This document shows, in pieces, positions 35,450 to 54,955 of a stretch of DNA of 64,000 nt. This stretch comes from TPA_inf: Saccharomyces (Eukaryota). Numbering within the stretch: position 1 is the first letter of the stretch; each line of letters begins with the position of its first letter. The notes below the pieces were generated by a model. The model worked only from the letters and a program-made list of their open reading frames with translations, did not search any database and was not told the origin of the DNA. The stretch spans positions 160,001 to 224,000 of the forward strand of contig BK006945.2 of NCBI GenBank assembly GCA_000146045.2, read 5' to 3'. A program made the position numbers and the translations under genes.

Positions 35450-36472
35450 TTAATTGACTAAAACCCAAATAACGAAAAATACAAAGATTATAAAAAAAAC
35501 CTTTGCGGCTAACCATCTATTACTCTTTATCCTGTCGAAGTATTTCAAAAGTTCCCTTTGAGCACCACTAATGTTTAAATCGATGTCGTCTACGTTTGCA
35601 TCAATCCTTTGGATTACTTCGCCCTGTTCTTGAACCATGGAGGCCAGTTGTTGGAAGAGATTTCCCACTTCCTGGATTGTGGATTCTATTGTCTCCACCG
35701 CCCTATTTCTTTCTTGTAAGTAGACGTTATTGGATAACTGTCCCTCTTCCATTAACATTAGTTGAGAGTCGTTTTGAGGGAAAGACAGTTCTCCTTGGTT
35801 GGACGAGTTGTTATTCTTTTCTGAGGATTCATCTAGTAGTGAGGTCATGAATGGGTTGGAGTTGTTATACGTGGTCAAGTCCGCGGCGTGATTGCTTTGC
35901 GTTTGGTCATCAGCTGGTGCATGTCCAGTGTCGGTGGTTAGTTTTTGCCATCTGTCTTTGTTAGCCATTTCTAGTCGTTGCCTTTCCTCCAATACGTCTT
36001 TAAAACTTCCTGATATGTTTTTCATTTGCGTGTTTAAAAGATTTACGACATTTTTGGAGTGCTGTACGGCACTAGGTTGCTTAGAAGATTGATTTGATGT
36101 GTTGCCATTCACGTCGGTTTTCTTGAGCTGACTTAATTGCACTAAACTTTGTTCGATGGCATAAATCTTCCTTTTGATCAAAAATGATAGCTCGGCAATC
36201 TCTACAGGGTTGTCATTGAACATCGGTTTCCTTTTGGCCAGCACTGCTAATTTCGATAATAATTGTGCGGTGGATGAAATTTCGTGAGCTATGCCAGAAG
36301 CCTTTTTTTGAAACTCAGAGACACTTTTCCCATTGCCGGTTGTGTTGTTGGCAAAGTTTTCACTTTCTTTCTCTTGTAGACGTTCCCTCTGCTGTTCTCT
36401 AAAGTTTTTGTTTCTTTTCTTGTAACTCAACACACTTTGTTGAAATTCTGAAGTTCTATCCTTTATGTTCAT
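35450..36472 (-). CDS. SED5: cis-Golgi syntaxin (t-SNARE) with C-terminal transmembrane anchor
   Basis: 340 aa. ATG confirmed. Q-SNARE motif followed by C-terminal transmembrane segment (KVFFIIFVFFVIWVLVN). Confidence 0.92.
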   Translation of the reverse strand: MNIKDRTSEFQQSVLSYKKRNKNFREQQRERLQEKESENFANNTTGNGKSVSEFQKKASGIAHEISSTAQLLSKLAVLAKRKPMFNDNPVEIAELSFLIKRKIYAIEQSLVQLSQLKKTDVNGNTSNQSSKQPSAVQHSKNVVNLLNTQMKNISGSFKDVLEERQRLEMANKDRWQKLTTDTGHAPADDQTQSNHAADLTTYNNSNPFMTSLLDESSEKNNNSSNQGELSFPQNDSQLMLMEEGQLSNNVYLQERNRAVETIESTIQEVGNLFQQLASMVQEQGEVIQRIDANVDDIDLNISGAQRELLKYFDRIKSNRWLAAKVFFIIFVFFVIWVLVN

Positions 36473-36828: not shown

Positions 36829-38085
36829 TTACAATTTAGCTTCAATAGTATAGAAGCGCACCACTTCATCAATGGCTTTAGCCACGTATTCCACGTTTCC
36901 TTGATTCAATCCAGCAATAGAAGCTCTACCTGAGGCAACCAAGTAAACTGCGTGGGTTTCTTCAAGTCGTTTAACCATTTGAGGAGTCAATCCTGTAAAG
37001 GAGAACATCCCGCATTGATTTACTATATGATCCCAGTTGCCAGGAGTGCCCAACTTGACTAAATGGTCTCTTAATGCGTGCCTCATTTTCGTAATTCTGG
37101 AGGACATGGTAACCATATCCTTGTGCCACTGTTCCGTTAATTCTGGCGTTTCCAACAGTTTAGCGACAATCTTAGCGCCGTAGGCGGGTGGGTTGGACAC
37201 TTCACTACGAATGATTTTGGCCAATTGAGATGTAACAGCAGGCTTTATAGTTTTGTTTTGAGCTTGTTTTGTAAGTGCTAGATGGAAACAACCTACACGC
37301 TCACCGTACATACCGGCGTTCTTGGCAAAGGACTGACAGACAAAGACGGGAGAGACCGTTGAAAGCTTCTCCACACCTAGACGCACAGCATAGGCATCCT
37401 TGTCCAAATCTCCAGTGGCAAACCCTTGGTAGGCGGTGTCAAATAAGGCGATGTGGTTCTTTGAGGCGATAGCATCAACGATTTGAACCCATTGTTCACT
37501 AGTAGGGTCCAGACCAGTTGGGTTATGGGCGCAAGAGTGCAGAACGAAAATGGAGCCCTCTGGAGCTTTTTGAATAGCATTTAGAAAGCCGTTTAGGTCC
37601 AAAGACTTAGTTTCGTTGGCCCAGTAAGGGTAAGTCGCCGTTTTCAAGCCTTGATTCTCAAAAATGGCCATGTGGTTGGCCCAAGTAGGCTTAGACAAAT
37701 AGACCAGTTTATCTGGGAAGAATTTTGAAAAAAACTTCGCAGATATATGAAGAGCACCCGTACCAGACAGTGATTGTACTGAGATTACTCTGTCTTCCTG
37801 AAAGGCATCGGATTGCGTACCGAAGATGATCTTGGCGGCGTTAGATGTCAAACTTGGCAGACCGGTAATACCGAGGTATTCATGGTTGTAGGAGCTGTCG
37901 TTATGAATTAGCTTTTCGGCGGCTTTAACACTTGGCAAGACCCATGGTTTACCGTTGTCGTCTCTGTAGGCCCCGATACCCAAGTCGACCTTGGTAGCAC
38001 GTTGATCTTGCCCGTACCTTTGCTTAATACCAAAAAGGGCATCAGGGGGCAGCAATTCGATGTTATTGAACAGAGTGGCAGACAT
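36829..38085 (-). CDS. AAT2: Aspartate aminotransferase, cytosolic/peroxisomal (PLP-dependent class I)
   Basis: Track ORF starts at GTG (38169). The canonical ATG at 38085 gives 418 aa starting MSATLFNNIELLPPD. PLP-lysine motif SFAKNAGMYGERVG. C-terminal -AKL PTS1. A further in-frame ATG lies at 38127, +14 codons upstream. Confidence 0.9.
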   Translation of the reverse strand: MSATLFNNIELLPPDALFGIKQRYGQDQRATKVDLGIGAYRDDNGKPWVLPSVKAAEKLIHNDSSYNHEYLGITGLPSLTSNAAKIIFGTQSDAFQEDRVISVQSLSGTGALHISAKFFSKFFPDKLVYLSKPTWANHMAIFENQGLKTATYPYWANETKSLDLNGFLNAIQKAPEGSIFVLHSCAHNPTGLDPTSEQWVQIVDAIASKNHIALFDTAYQGFATGDLDKDAYAVRLGVEKLSTVSPVFVCQSFAKNAGMYGERVGCFHLALTKQAQNKTIKPAVTSQLAKIIRSEVSNPPAYGAKIVAKLLETPELTEQWHKDMVTMSSRITKMRHALRDHLVKLGTPGNWDHIVNQCGMFSFTGLTPQMVKRLEETHAVYLVASGRASIAGLNQGNVEYVAKAIDEVVRFYTIEAKL

Positions 38086-38682
38086 TATCGCTCTTGTGTT
38101 CTTGTATTCCTGTGTTCTTTTGTTCATTAGAATTTGGACGGTTGCGCTTTCCCTTCTTAAAGTATCCACATACGTTTATATACCGACGTGCAAGGCGACA
38201 AGGTAAATGAGGCCGATCACGCTGACTCACTCGGTCCGACTCTCGGCGATCGTTATTCACGAAGACGAAAGATAGCCATTTCCAGTGGTGACCATTAGTA
38301 TTGACAATATGTACATCGCATTAAACAGTAAGAAAACATTAATATTCCGTCAGGAATTCCTGTAAATTGCTCTTACTACAAACCTGCAATGCCCATATCA
38401 TCATATTCAAAGTAAAAATTTCATTTTCCGTAATTATTCTTATCTTTGGGTGCTTTGTGGCAGCTACTGGAGTAATTGTGTATAATAGATGCCACTAGTG
38501 CAGTTAAATGAAATATCCTACATTGAGAGTTTAAAAAATTGCCTCCTTGTATGTTTCTTGTAAATAATGATTTTATGTCCTTCTAGCGTAGTAACCCTAA
38601 ACCATCAGCGGCTATTATTAACATTGTTACCCTGACAGTGCTTTTTTATTTCAAGAAAAATTTTCCTTTAGATTCTCTCGCC

Positions 38683-38690
38683 TATATAAA
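38683..38690 (+). promoter_or_regulatory. TATA box (TATATAAA) about 95 bp upstream of the snR30 5' end
   Basis: Consensus TATA sequence at the expected distance from the Pol II snoRNA start. Confidence 0.45.
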
Positions 38691-38783
38691 CACTTTGAAA
38701 CTCTCATCGTCGTGCATTTAACTTCTATGGTAAACTTCTTTTCCCATTCAAGTTTCTCTTTGCTTATTTGTAAAAAAAAAAGT

Positions 38784-39392
38784 AACCATAGTCTCGTGCT
38801 AGTTCGGTACTATACAGGGAAGGGAAGTCACTCGCATACGTGTGTGTGCATTTCTTGCTATTGCTGCTTAGCTTCTCTAAAACACTGGGCTAGCGTTTTT
38901 CAACGCTCGAGAGGCAGAGTCTCAAGGAGCCTCCAATGGGCCTCACGTATTCATCTAGATGGCGCTTCGGACAACGGCATCACATAAGAGATGCAGCTCC
39001 TGACTTCTCCTCTGATCTTCGTGATCAGAGTTTTGAGTCGTCAGACTACGAGCAGTTTCTCTTAGTCGTTGCATCGGGTGCTGTTGCCTTAACGATGTGT
39101 ATATGGGGTTCGGGGGCTGTTGCCATGATATATATGGATGAGACAGAAGTGGCCCCGTTGACGAGTTTAACTTAGATTAAGTAGGACGCATGATCTTGAG
39201 CTCTTTTCCTATACTTTGTCCTATGGCCAGCTTTCTCCTTATTACGAAGAGATTGCGGGATGTGGGTGCAGAGTGGGAAAATCTGAGTTCGGTCATCTTT
39301 GTTGTTCGTCCTACCGCAGTATATTCCTAAACACTATGAAATGACCCTAGTTGGTCCATGATCATTTGGGTAAAACCATACTGCAGACATCT
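38784..39392 (+). ncRNA. SNR30: H/ACA box snoRNA snR30 (U17 homolog), essential for 18S rRNA processing
   Basis: Starts AACCATAGTCTCGTGCTAGTTCGG. The 3' hairpin internal loop carries the conserved m1 motif ATATTCCTA (39320-39328) and m2 motif AAACCAT (39373-39379), which pair with 18S ES6. ACA box at 39387-39389, 3 nt from the end. About 606 nt. Lies on the + strand in the 1.45-kb ORF-free gap between AAT2 and ADE16. Confidence 0.85.
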
Positions 39393-39539
39393 CTATAATT
39401 CACATATTCACATCTTGTCCTCTCGCAGAAGAGGAAGGCCTTTGACGTAGAAAATTAAGTAAATCGTATACGTTTACGTATATACACTTGTATTCAGCTA
39501 TATATGTTGTTTCTGTTCTTCTCATAAAATGTACCCTAC

Positions 39540-41315
39540 TTAGTGGTGGAATAAACGAATTGGGTTCTCCACGTAGACGATATCAAATGAATCCGCCGCT
39601 TGGAAGACAACTTTGTCCATGACAGACCCCGAAGGAGCCGTGATGAACTTTACACCAGACTGCACAGCTCTATAAACGTTGTCTGGGAAGGGAAAGAACG
39701 CATCGGATGATAACGATACATTGTTTAATTTGCTTAACCATTCTAGTCTTTCTTCTTTGGTGAAAGGTTCAGGGACTTCTTCAAATTTGCTTTCGTAATC
39801 CACCTTTTCCGGGCCTTCTATTCTTTGCCCTGTAACAAAAAGATCAATCGCATTCGACTTGTCCGCTCTCTTAATTCCCTTGGCCCACTTCATGTTCAAA
39901 ACCTTTGGATGTTGTCTCAACCACCAGTTGTCCGTCTTGTCACCAGCTAATCTGGTACAGTGTATACGCGATTGTTGGCCGGCCCCAAGCCCCACAACCA
40001 TACCATTCTTTGCGTAGCAAACAGAATTTGATTGTGTGTATTTTAAAACCAGCGTAGCAACAGTTAGATCGATAACGGCTTGCTCGGTAAGTGCTTTGTT
40101 TTTGGAGACAATTTCTTTGAAAGTGGATTGGTTTATGATCGCATCGTTTCTCTTTTGTTGTAACGTTACGCCAAAAACCTCTCGGGATTCCATTTGGCCA
40201 GGAACATAGTTTGGATCGATTTGTAAAATACAGTATTTTCCGTTTTTCTTCTTAGATAGTATATTCAATGCCTCTGGTTCATACCCTGGAGCAATAACAC
40301 CATCGGAAACTTCTTTAGAGATGATTTTTGCAGTGGCGACATCTACAATATTGGACAATGCAATGAAATCACCAAAGGATGACATCCTATCTGCACCACG
40401 GGCCCTAGCGTATGCGCATGCCAATGGTGATAAATCCTCCATATCATTCACAAAATAAACTTGTCTTTCCACATCGGATAATGGAAGTCCCACAGCAGCA
40501 CCTGCTGGAGAAACGTGCTTGAACGATGCTGCCGCAGGCAAGTTCAATGATGCAGATAACTCTTTCACTAAGGGCCATGAGTTCAAGGCATCCAAAAGAT
40601 TTATATATCCTGGTGTACCGCAGAGCACTTTGAAGGGCAACTCCTCCTGCTGAGTGATATAAGCTTGTGCAGGTCTTTGGTGGGGATTACAACCATATCT
40701 TAGCGGTAATTGGGCTTTCCCTTCGGAGTACTGTTTCCTGAAAAAGTCAGAAATGGCCGCATCATAATCGGCCGTATGTTCAAACGCCTTAAGTGCAAAT
40801 CTATTTCTTAAATCCTGAGAAATTTCACCGTCCTTAGACAGGTCTTGCAGAAAGATAGAATAGTCATTAGGGTCTGAAAGAATAGTCACTCTGGAATGGT
40901 TCTTTGCGGCTGCTCTCAACAAAGTCACACCGCCAATGTCGATCTCCTCTACAGCTTCTTGAACTGTAACACCAATTTTAGCCACAGTTTCTTTGAACGG
41001 ATATAGATTACATACAACAAAATCCACCTTATCAATGTGCTGCTCTTTTAAATCTTTTTCATCGCCCTCTAAATTTCTGGCAAGAATACCTGCATGCACA
41101 GCAGGGTGAAGAGTCTTGACTCTACCCCCTAGCATTTCTGGTGCATGCGTAATTGAAGAAACATCGTCGACCGGAAAACCAGCTTCTCTGACCATGTTGG
41201 CCGTACCACCGGATGCTAGGATACGAACATTGTTCTCTACCAATCCCTTGGCTAAGTCTAATAAACCTGTCTTATCATAAACTGACAAGATCGCAGTCTT
41301 GGTATATTTGCCCAT
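39540..41315 (-). CDS. ADE16: Bifunctional AICAR transformylase / IMP cyclohydrolase (PurH)
   Basis: 591 aa. ATG confirmed. N-terminal MGS-like and AICARFT/IMPCHase domains ([25 protein letters not shown]...). Confidence 0.92.
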
Positions 41316-41975: not shown

Positions 41976-42590
41976 TTATTTTCTGTATCTCCACAAGGAC
42001 AAAGTGTTTTGTCTCTTCCAGGTCTTTCTTCTACCAGCCTTGGTGTTGTTGAATTTGTGACCCTTGTTGATACCTCTGGATTTCTTACCAGTGGCAGTCA
42101 AACCTCTAGCTTCACGGTGCTTGTGAACTGGGTCACAGATCCAGTTGTAACGAGCATCTCTTCTGATAGCCTTGTGTTGAGGGTCGACCAAGATAACTTC
42201 GAAGTACTTGTAAGTAGAATCTTGGTTAACCCAGTAGGAGTTCAAGACTCTCAAGTTAGCGGCACGACGACCAACTCTTTCTTCAGCGGTAGCTCTCAAG
42301 GATCTTTGGTATTTCAATTCATTGACACCTTGGTTAGTTGGCTTACCGTAAGTAGCACCCTTTGGAACAGGTCTCTTTCTGTTACCACGTCTAACTCTGA
42401 CACGGTAGATAACGAAACCTTGCTTAGCTTTGTAACCCAATCTTCTAGCCTTGTCTGGTCTAGTTGGTCTAGCGGCTCTGTGAATGACATTCTTTTGTCT
42501 GTATTCCCAGACTCTGACTCTTTGCAAGAATCTCAAAACATCAGATTGCTTCTTTCTTTGCAATTCTTCCAAATATTTGTAGGCACCCAT
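41976..42590 (-). CDS. RPL15A: 60S ribosomal protein L15 (eL15)
   Basis: 204 aa. ATG confirmed. Starts [32 protein letters not shown]. Intronless. Confidence 0.93.
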
Positions 42591-54882: not shown

Positions 54883-54955
54883 TGGACGCAACCGGAATCG
54901 AACCGATGACCTCTTCCTTGCAAGGGAAGCGCGCTACCAACTGCGCCATGTGCCC
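54883..54955 (-). tRNA. tA(UGC): tRNA-Ala (anticodon UGC)
   Basis: Reverse complement reads GGGCACATGGCGCAGTTGGTAGCGCGCTTCCCTTGCAAGGAAGAGGTCATCGGTTCGATTCCGGTTGCGTCCA. Anticodon loop CTTGCAA. T6 terminator immediately 3' (plus 54873-54878). Confidence 0.9.

Follow-up and report, generated by a model that had tools for sequence, protein, structure and literature searches.

What is encoded in the gap between AAT2 and ADE16, two minus-strand genes in a stretch of 64,000 nucleotides (nt) of Saccharomyces DNA (contig BK006945.2, positions 160,001 to 224,000; the window in the following)? Measured from the ATG of AAT2 (38085) to the stop codon of ADE16 (39540), the gap comprises 38086..39539 and has a length of 1454 bp, in agreement with the 1.45 kb without a real open reading frame (ORF) that had been described in an initial annotation made from the letters alone. 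There, the interval had been given as 38170..39539 (1370 bp). Its end was correct, but its start marks where a mechanical ORF, extended to a GTG codon, terminates and not the ATG of AAT2. The initial annotation had further assigned the small nucleolar RNA (snoRNA) snR30 to the plus strand of this gap, and this assignment held. The stretch 38784..39392 (+) is almost certainly SNR30, the S. cerevisiae gene for snR30 (U17 or SNORA73 in vertebrates), a non-coding RNA required for the formation of the small ribosomal subunit.

SNR30 is an independent gene unit between AAT2 and ADE16. The locus has been known for a long time and studied in depth, and it contains nothing new. The RNA was reportedly described by Bally and co-workers, the gene being known since 1988, and the genetics of its mechanism are said to date from 2004 to 2009, with work by Atzorn and co-workers in 2004. 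The seemingly empty gap is now explained, which adds no biology and is of value for annotation. The analysis covered family, structure, motifs, 18S complementarity, gene order, conservation and non-conservation of the ORFs, while the bound proteins, the essentiality and the roles as a chaperone and in processing were taken from the literature, among others from Fayet-Lebaron et al. 2009 (PMC2664660) and the cryo-electron microscopy (cryo-EM) study of Fischer et al. 2025 (PMC12095548).

Identification of SNR30

The whole window was scanned with Rfam 15. Apart from transfer RNAs (tRNAs), the sole match was RF01271 (snR30, clan CL00078) at 38784..39392 (+) with 739.7 bits and E = 8e-229. It covered the model positions 1-612 and was not truncated. 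A comparison with the Rfam snR30/U17 family had been suggested as a check of the assignment, and this full-length match reached approx. nine times the gathering score of 80 bits. Given the E-value of the covariance-model match, the arrangement of the elements is far beyond chance.

The RNA begins with AACCATAGTCTCGTGC at 38784. The snR30 F and R primers that are printed in PMC9176245 for in-vitro transcription map exactly to 38784 and 39392, and because the published primers end at these positions, the Rfam span corresponds to the full-length snR30 of the experimentalists. Up to the third nucleotide after the ACA box, the mature box H/ACA snoRNA has a length of 609 nt. Concerning the previously proposed stretch of about 606 nt, the start was confirmed but not the length, as counting 606 nt from 38784 leads only to the final A of the ACA box (39389). 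The minimum free energy (MFE) of the whole RNA was -207.9 kcal/mol with z = -4.67 in comparison to dinucleotide shuffles.

Structure of the RNA

The Rfam consensus is composed of a leader hairpin, a large 5' hairpin, the H-box hinge, an internal hairpin, the 3' hairpin and the ACA tail, and the same architecture is described for yeast snR30 in a review (PMC7601244). Thus, the hairpin-hinge-hairpin layout with an H box that is typical of H/ACA snoRNAs, and that the initial annotation had left to be confirmed, is present in the Rfam-aligned structure.

The 5' leader with its small hairpin (model positions 9-37) has about 41 nt and is located at 38784..38824 (+). This equals the 41 nt reported for the snR30 leader (PMC7601244). 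Its 5'-terminal AACCAUAG is kept in four genera, namely in S. cerevisiae and the three other yeasts described below. The leader is followed by the extended 5' hairpin domain at approx. 38825..39172 (+), whose outer helix reaches from about model position 42 to 392. According to the literature, this domain is not needed for viability. Its length differs among the genera with large deletions in Naumovozyma castellii and Torulaspora globosa, and its base (AUGGAUGAGACAGAAGUNGCCCCGUUGACGAG) is almost invariant. The H box AGAUUA (AGATTA in DNA; consensus ANANNA) at 39174..39179 (+) is the only ANANNA in the hinge, and the Rfam structure leaves it unpaired. The surrounding UUAGAU(U/C)AAGU is conserved in all four genera, and in the cryo-EM structure the 5' copy of Cbf5 binds the H box (PMC12095548).

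The internal hairpin is located at 39181..39314 (+) (model positions 400-533) and contains many compensatory pairs in a fold of the four orthologues. A published delta-5' construct begins at 39182 and a delta-5'/delta-IH construct at 39316. The latter is also the first position of the 3' hairpin, the essential functional domain (39316..39384, +), which consists in the Rfam structure of a basal stem of 7 bp (GCAGUAU/AUACUGC), the loop with the motifs m1 and m2, an upper stem and a distal element. The distal element CCCUAG...CCAUGA at 39345..39361 (+) was located by mapping from the literature, where C561-G566/C572-A577 was found to be essential for 18S processing but not for rRNA binding (PMC2664660). 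In our mapping with an offset of 1 nt, these residues are 39345-39350 and 39356-39361 in the window, and they are largely conserved in the four genera. The RNA ends with the tail AGACAUCU. Its ACA box at 39387..39389 (+) is followed by TCT up to 39392, where both the model and the published full-length construct end, and is thus positioned 3 nt from the end as originally noted. The ACA box is invariant in the four genera.

Complementarity of m1 and m2 to 18S rRNA

The motif m1 (AUAUUCCUA, in DNA ATATTCCTA; definition in Table 1 of PMC7601244) was matched exactly at 39321..39329 (+) and m2 (AAACCAU, in DNA AAACCAT) at 39373..39379 (+), so that both motifs were found in the 3' hairpin, as the initial annotation had claimed. 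ATATTCCTA occurs once on the plus strand of the window (expected: approx. 0.24) and once on the minus strand. AAACCAT and the TATATAAA motif upstream of the RNA prove nothing on their own because they are common in the window with ten and eight plus-strand copies, respectively.

In the Rfam structure, an internal loop with a 5' strand of 10 nt (AUUCCUAAAC) and a 3' strand of 6 nt (AAAACC) adjoins the basal stem of 7 bp. The motifs m1 and m2 are located on opposite strands of this loop at its basal side with the outer two nucleotides of each inside the basal stem. Their position in an internal loop that belongs to the 3' hairpin, on which the proposal had been made to depend, is the one described in PMC2664660. 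Between the end of m2 (39379) and the start of the ACA box (39387), there is a gap of 7 nt. This spacing is reported to be invariant and functionally important (PMC2664660).

The window contains no ribosomal DNA, and the 18S stretch 798-846 (CAUGGAAUAAUAGAAUAGGACGUUUGGUUCUAUUUUGUUGGUUUCUAGG) was rebuilt from the primers Rm1 F and Rm2 R of PMC9176245. In that study, rm1 is GGAAUA (18S 801-806) and rm2 is UGGUUU (18S 836-841). UAUUCC within m1 (39322-39327) is a perfect 6-bp complement of rm1 and AAACCA within m2 (39373-39378) of rm2, and each of them occurs only once in the 609-nt RNA. The complementarity to expansion segment 6 (ES6), which had been named as a point to be checked, is hence exact against the published sequence of 18S 798-846. 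The stretch between rm1 and rm2 (806-836) folds as a hairpin of 13 bp, in agreement with the three-way junction observed by cryo-EM (PMC12095548). When the m2 strand was hybridised to 18S 798-846 with RNAduplex, a bulged alternative at approx. 818-830 was preferred because UUUGGUU occurs twice in the 18S fragment; the perfect 6-bp match is found only at 836-841.

Function of snR30 and comparison with related snoRNAs

According to the literature, snR30 stands alone among the box H/ACA snoRNAs of yeast in being essential. Its H box and its ACA box are each occupied by a Cbf5-Nop10-Nhp2 module, with a single Gar1 on the 3' module (PMC12095548), and it is required for the cleavages A0, A1 and A2 and for the accumulation of 18S rRNA (PMC2664660, PMC7601244, PMC12095548). 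Compensatory mutations in snR30 and 18S rRNA restore 18S processing (PMC2664660). The ribonucleoprotein particle (RNP) acts as a chaperone of the platform/ES6 subdomain and brings in Krr1, Utp23 and Kri1, and its release depends on Krr1 (PMC12095548). For the RNA from the gap, a mechanism of the same kind can be proposed. At the basal side of the loop, m1 and m2 would pair with the separated motifs rm1 and rm2 in ES6 of the pre-18S rRNA. This pairing would keep the fold of ES6 and of the platform subdomain immature. On ES6, snR30 would recruit Utp23, Krr1 and Kri1, and it would be needed for the cleavages A0, A1 and A2 and hence for the production of 18S rRNA.

An H box, an ACA box and a 3' hairpin with an internal loop are generic features of the H/ACA class, and they would also be present in a conventional pseudouridylation-guide snoRNA that merely resembles snR30. 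Guide snoRNAs such as snR34 and snR5 share the arrangement of hairpin, hinge, hairpin and tail, both boxes and the core proteins Cbf5, Nop10, Nhp2 and Gar1. However, snR30 was the best and only Rfam family for this locus with its ninefold gathering score. No distal bipartite guide with a target uridine 14-15 nt from the H or ACA box was found in the RNA. Instead, its complementary elements are basal, 7 nt from the ACA box, and they pair with two 18S motifs approx. 30 nt apart and not with the flanks of a target uridine. We know of no snR30-dependent pseudouridine in rRNA. In contrast to the guide snoRNAs, snR30 has an additional internal hairpin and a leader, pairs with two separated rRNA motifs, presents no uridine to Cbf5 and carries one Gar1 (PMC12095548), and its RNP is catalytically dormant for pseudouridylation by cryo-EM (PMC12095548). 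A guide snoRNA at this locus is therefore extraordinarily unlikely; snR30 does not guide pseudouridylation.

With the S. cerevisiae SNR30 of the literature, the RNA shares everything that was compared, namely m1, m2, the H and ACA boxes, the 7-nt spacing and the neighbouring genes. It is the same gene, and the differences are a matter of bookkeeping only (609 nt versus the quoted 606 nt, and a numbering that is lower by one in the literature). The vertebrate U17/E1 RNA (SNORA73) is similar in another sense. Its motifs m1 (AUAUUCCUA) and m2 (AAACCAU) are identical (PMC7601244, Table 1), and it has the same 3'-hairpin architecture, the 7-nt spacing to the ACA box and a role in 18S processing (PMC2664660). 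It is much smaller, though, with approx. 205-220 nt, and the yeast RNA is about three times longer. The 5' domain of U17 is compact and its internal hairpin is small. Vertebrate U17 is intron-encoded, whereas the yeast gene is an independent unit between protein-coding genes.

Conservation in other yeasts

AAT2 loci were fetched from other yeasts. Among those scanned with RF01271, three had snR30 on the opposite strand just past the stop codon of an ADE16/17-like gene, which is the same position as in the window. The RNA has 444 nt in Torulaspora globosa (183.5 bits), 589 nt in Huiozyma naganishii (171.4 bits) and 476 nt in Naumovozyma castellii (156.6 bits). The same length of 589 nt is listed for Kazachstania naganishii in PMC7601244.

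The last ~90 nt with the 3' hairpin showed a mean column identity of 90% across the four genera. There is no variation in m2, in the ACA box or in the 7-nt spacing, and m1 differs only at its last base (A/G). When the Rfam structure of the 3' hairpin was applied to the alignment of the four genera, 94.4% of the cells could pair compared to 18-47% with partners slid, and the basal stem contains one compensatory change from A-U to G-C. When the four RNAs were folded together over their full length (66% mean identity), the consensus had 100 pairs. Compensatory double changes were seen in 22 of these, mostly in the internal hairpin and at the base of the 5' domain.

Within S. cerevisiae, one variable site was observed in the 609-nt RNA among eight other copies, compared to eight sites in 845 nt of the gap flanks. 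The only polymorphic site is 39043 (+), where three metagenome contigs have G, the Rfam consensus base, in place of the A of the window; the pairing is retained (A-U versus G-U). These data also bear on the question whether the locus is a pseudogene or a degenerate copy of SNR30 and not the functional gene. No point in favour of a pseudogene was found. The match is full-length and none of the functional elements is damaged, four S. cerevisiae assemblies contain the identical sequence and four metagenome contigs a copy with an identity of at least 99.5%, snR30 occupies the same position in three other genera, and the Rfam scan revealed no second copy within the window. The probability of a degenerate copy is thus practically negligible, and the locus is regarded as functional SNR30.

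Some observations weigh against SNR30 as presented here. In purely thermodynamic folds, and unlike in the loop of Rfam and the literature, UUUGGG of the upper stem takes CCUAA(A) of m1 as its partner. Because m1 is paired in the MFE structure, the openness of the m1/m2 loop rests on the comparative model and the published structures. In a test of covariation in the 3' hairpin with four sequences, 111 of 500 shuffles reached the observed score; since the hairpin is almost invariant, this control is uninformative, and more could be learned from the consensus fold of the full-length RNAs. Finally, the quoted 606 nt and the numbering in the literature differ by 1-3 nt from the 609-nt span, the published positions of m1 (537-545) and m2 (589-595) being lower by one than those counted from 38784. 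Overall, nothing substantive counted against the assignment.

Of four further loci, the Rfam scan covered that of N. glabratus (L005) and yielded no snR30 there. Upstream of AAT2, the gene order is rearranged in N. glabratus, where GCN1 is located upstream of AAT2, as well as in V. polyspora (L009), L. nothofagi (L010) and a Logan yeast. The order ADE16-SNR30-AAT2 is therefore not universal in the Saccharomycetaceae.

A scan of metagenomes with the conserved 25-mer from the 3' end detected, apart from one yeast at a far greater distance, nothing but S. cerevisiae copies with an identity of at least 99.5%. A diverged yeast homologue of snR30 was observed at positions 6061-6311 (+) of the metagenome contig L012, and the same element in L013 and L015 (the three contigs are from ERZ794949/ERZ794946/ERZ794936). 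In the L012 homologue, m1, m2 and the distal CCUAGUUGGCCAAUGAUCAUUUGGG block are intact, as is an ACA box followed by 3 nt; approx. 129 nt are inserted within the 3' hairpin and the 5' domain is hardly recognisable. RF01271 reached only 21.6 bits compared to the gathering score of 80, and standard annotation would consequently miss this homologue. The Rfam snR30 model thus fails to detect a diverged yeast homologue with an expanded 3' hairpin. A C/D snoRNA, snR71, is located approx. 1.2 kb upstream of it.

The small ORFs in the gap

Two mechanical ORFs are found in the gap. The first one has 91 codons with a GTG start (38712..38987, +) and begins 72 nt upstream of the RNA; the second one has 79 codons with an ATG start (38936..39175, +) and is located wholly within the 5' hairpin domain. 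Both had been described as lying inside the RNA, which is true for the 79-aa ORF but only in part for the 91-aa ORF, as the latter lies in the gap and starts before the RNA. Even its first ATG, at 38727, precedes the transcript.

One could argue that the gap encodes one or two small proteins and that the RNA match is secondary. Both ORFs do exist, and automatic callers listed the 79-aa ORF (38936..39175) together with a 46-aa ORF (39190..39330) on Logan contigs of S. cerevisiae (L001/L003, 2911-3150 and 2756-2896, respectively), both inside snR30. In addition, tblastn detected patches of 16-20 amino acids (aa) with similarity in the three orthologous loci. These patches, one of them with an in-frame stop, were the only similarity, and they coincide with invariant blocks of the RNA, while the remaining ORF has no counterpart. 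In the 79-aa ORF, only the last ~20 codons were similar in the orthologues, and they overlap with a conserved RNA block.

Further evidence argues for non-coding ORFs, as the initial annotation had stated. No Pfam family above the threshold was found for the 91-aa and the 79-aa ORF, and no gene is called at these ORFs in NCBI-annotated S. cerevisiae genomes. Neither reading frame is maintained in T. globosa, H. naganishii or N. castellii. The ORF region is removed or shifted, in N. castellii and T. globosa by deletions of more than 100 nt and elsewhere by smaller indels that vary in length. In the T. globosa snR30, the longest sense ORF with an ATG has 16 aa, in H. naganishii it has 57 aa at another position, and in N. 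castellii it has 80 aa and begins where the S. cerevisiae ORF ends. With the GTG start of the 91-aa ORF and the description of snR30 as a nucleolar RNA in the literature, protein-coding genes as the content of the gap are very improbable, and SNR30 accounts for it.

There is a very faint chance that the 79-aa or the 46-aa ORF might be weakly translated from transcripts that are precursors or located in the cytoplasm. If so, the product would be a young, Saccharomyces-specific micropeptide, as conservation across genera is excluded. The 91-aa and the 79-aa ORF should be suppressed in annotations. Automatic calls such as those of the 79-aa and the 46-aa ORF show how spurious "proteins" derived from non-coding RNAs can enter protein databases.

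Flanking regions of SNR30

The distance between SNR30 and the divergent AAT2 is 698 bp. Within this region, a candidate TATA box TATATAAA (38683..38690, +) was located 94-101 bp upstream of the RNA 5' end, in line with the approx. 95 bp of the initial annotation. It suggests a TATA-containing independent promoter for RNA polymerase II (Pol II). A further 90 bp upstream of the candidate TATA box, there is a single match to AACCCTAA (38593..38600, +) in the 698-bp region, which we take to be a Tbf1-type motif. Judging from this match, Tbf1 may bind there, and the motif is a candidate snoRNA promoter element. A run of ten A residues (38772-38781, +) immediately precedes the RNA 5' end. The run and AACCCTAA appear to fit known yeast snoRNA promoters. 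In a passage of PMC4138321 citing Preti et al. 2010, the transcription of snoRNAs in S. cerevisiae is attributed primarily to the factors TBF1 and RAP1. A scan of the gap for promoters and terminators of the bacterial type gave counts no different from those in shuffles, but such a scan is unsuited to a eukaryotic Pol II gene.

The 3' flank (39393..39539, +) is convergent with ADE16, the 3' ends of both genes being 147 bp apart. It contains UCUU at 39413 and 39517, CUUG at 39414 and 39487 and GUAA/GUAG at 39447 and 39459. UCUU/CUUG and GUAA/GUAG are Nab3- and Nrd1-type motifs in snoRNA 3'-end formation, and the candidate Nrd1/Nab3 motifs of the flank could have a role in termination.

Neighbouring genes

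Both flanking genes were named correctly in the initial annotation according to their Pfam families and the matching S. cerevisiae loci. AAT2 (36829..38085, -; divergent from SNR30) encodes an aspartate aminotransferase (class I/II) of 418 aa (Aminotran_1_2, E = 1.3e-78). Genome assemblies of S. cerevisiae encode exactly this protein between the same neighbours. The comparison also gave 99% identity to an S. cerevisiae protein, and the orthologues carry the name AAT2. ADE16 (39540..41315, -; convergent with SNR30) encodes an AICAR transformylase/IMP cyclohydrolase of 591 aa (AICARFT_IMPCHas, E = 1.1e-86, plus MGS), and a gene for this enzyme also adjoins in the matching S. cerevisiae genome loci. 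It is presumably ADE16 and not its paralogue ADE17, a choice that was made from the adjacency to AAT2 and the length of 591 aa. We take the region to be part of chromosome XII with AAT2 as YLR027C and ADE16 as YLR028C.

Beyond AAT2, there is a gene for a SNARE of the syntaxin-5 type, SED5-like, with 340 aa (35450..36472, -), and beyond ADE16 a gene for ribosomal protein L15e with 204 aa (41976..42590, -). Their labels come from Pfam and were taken from the matching genome loci, and both genes fit the context of S. cerevisiae chromosome XII. The window also contains a tRNA-Ser(AGA) gene at 7943-8026 (-) and a tRNA-Ala(UGC) gene at 54883-54955 (-).

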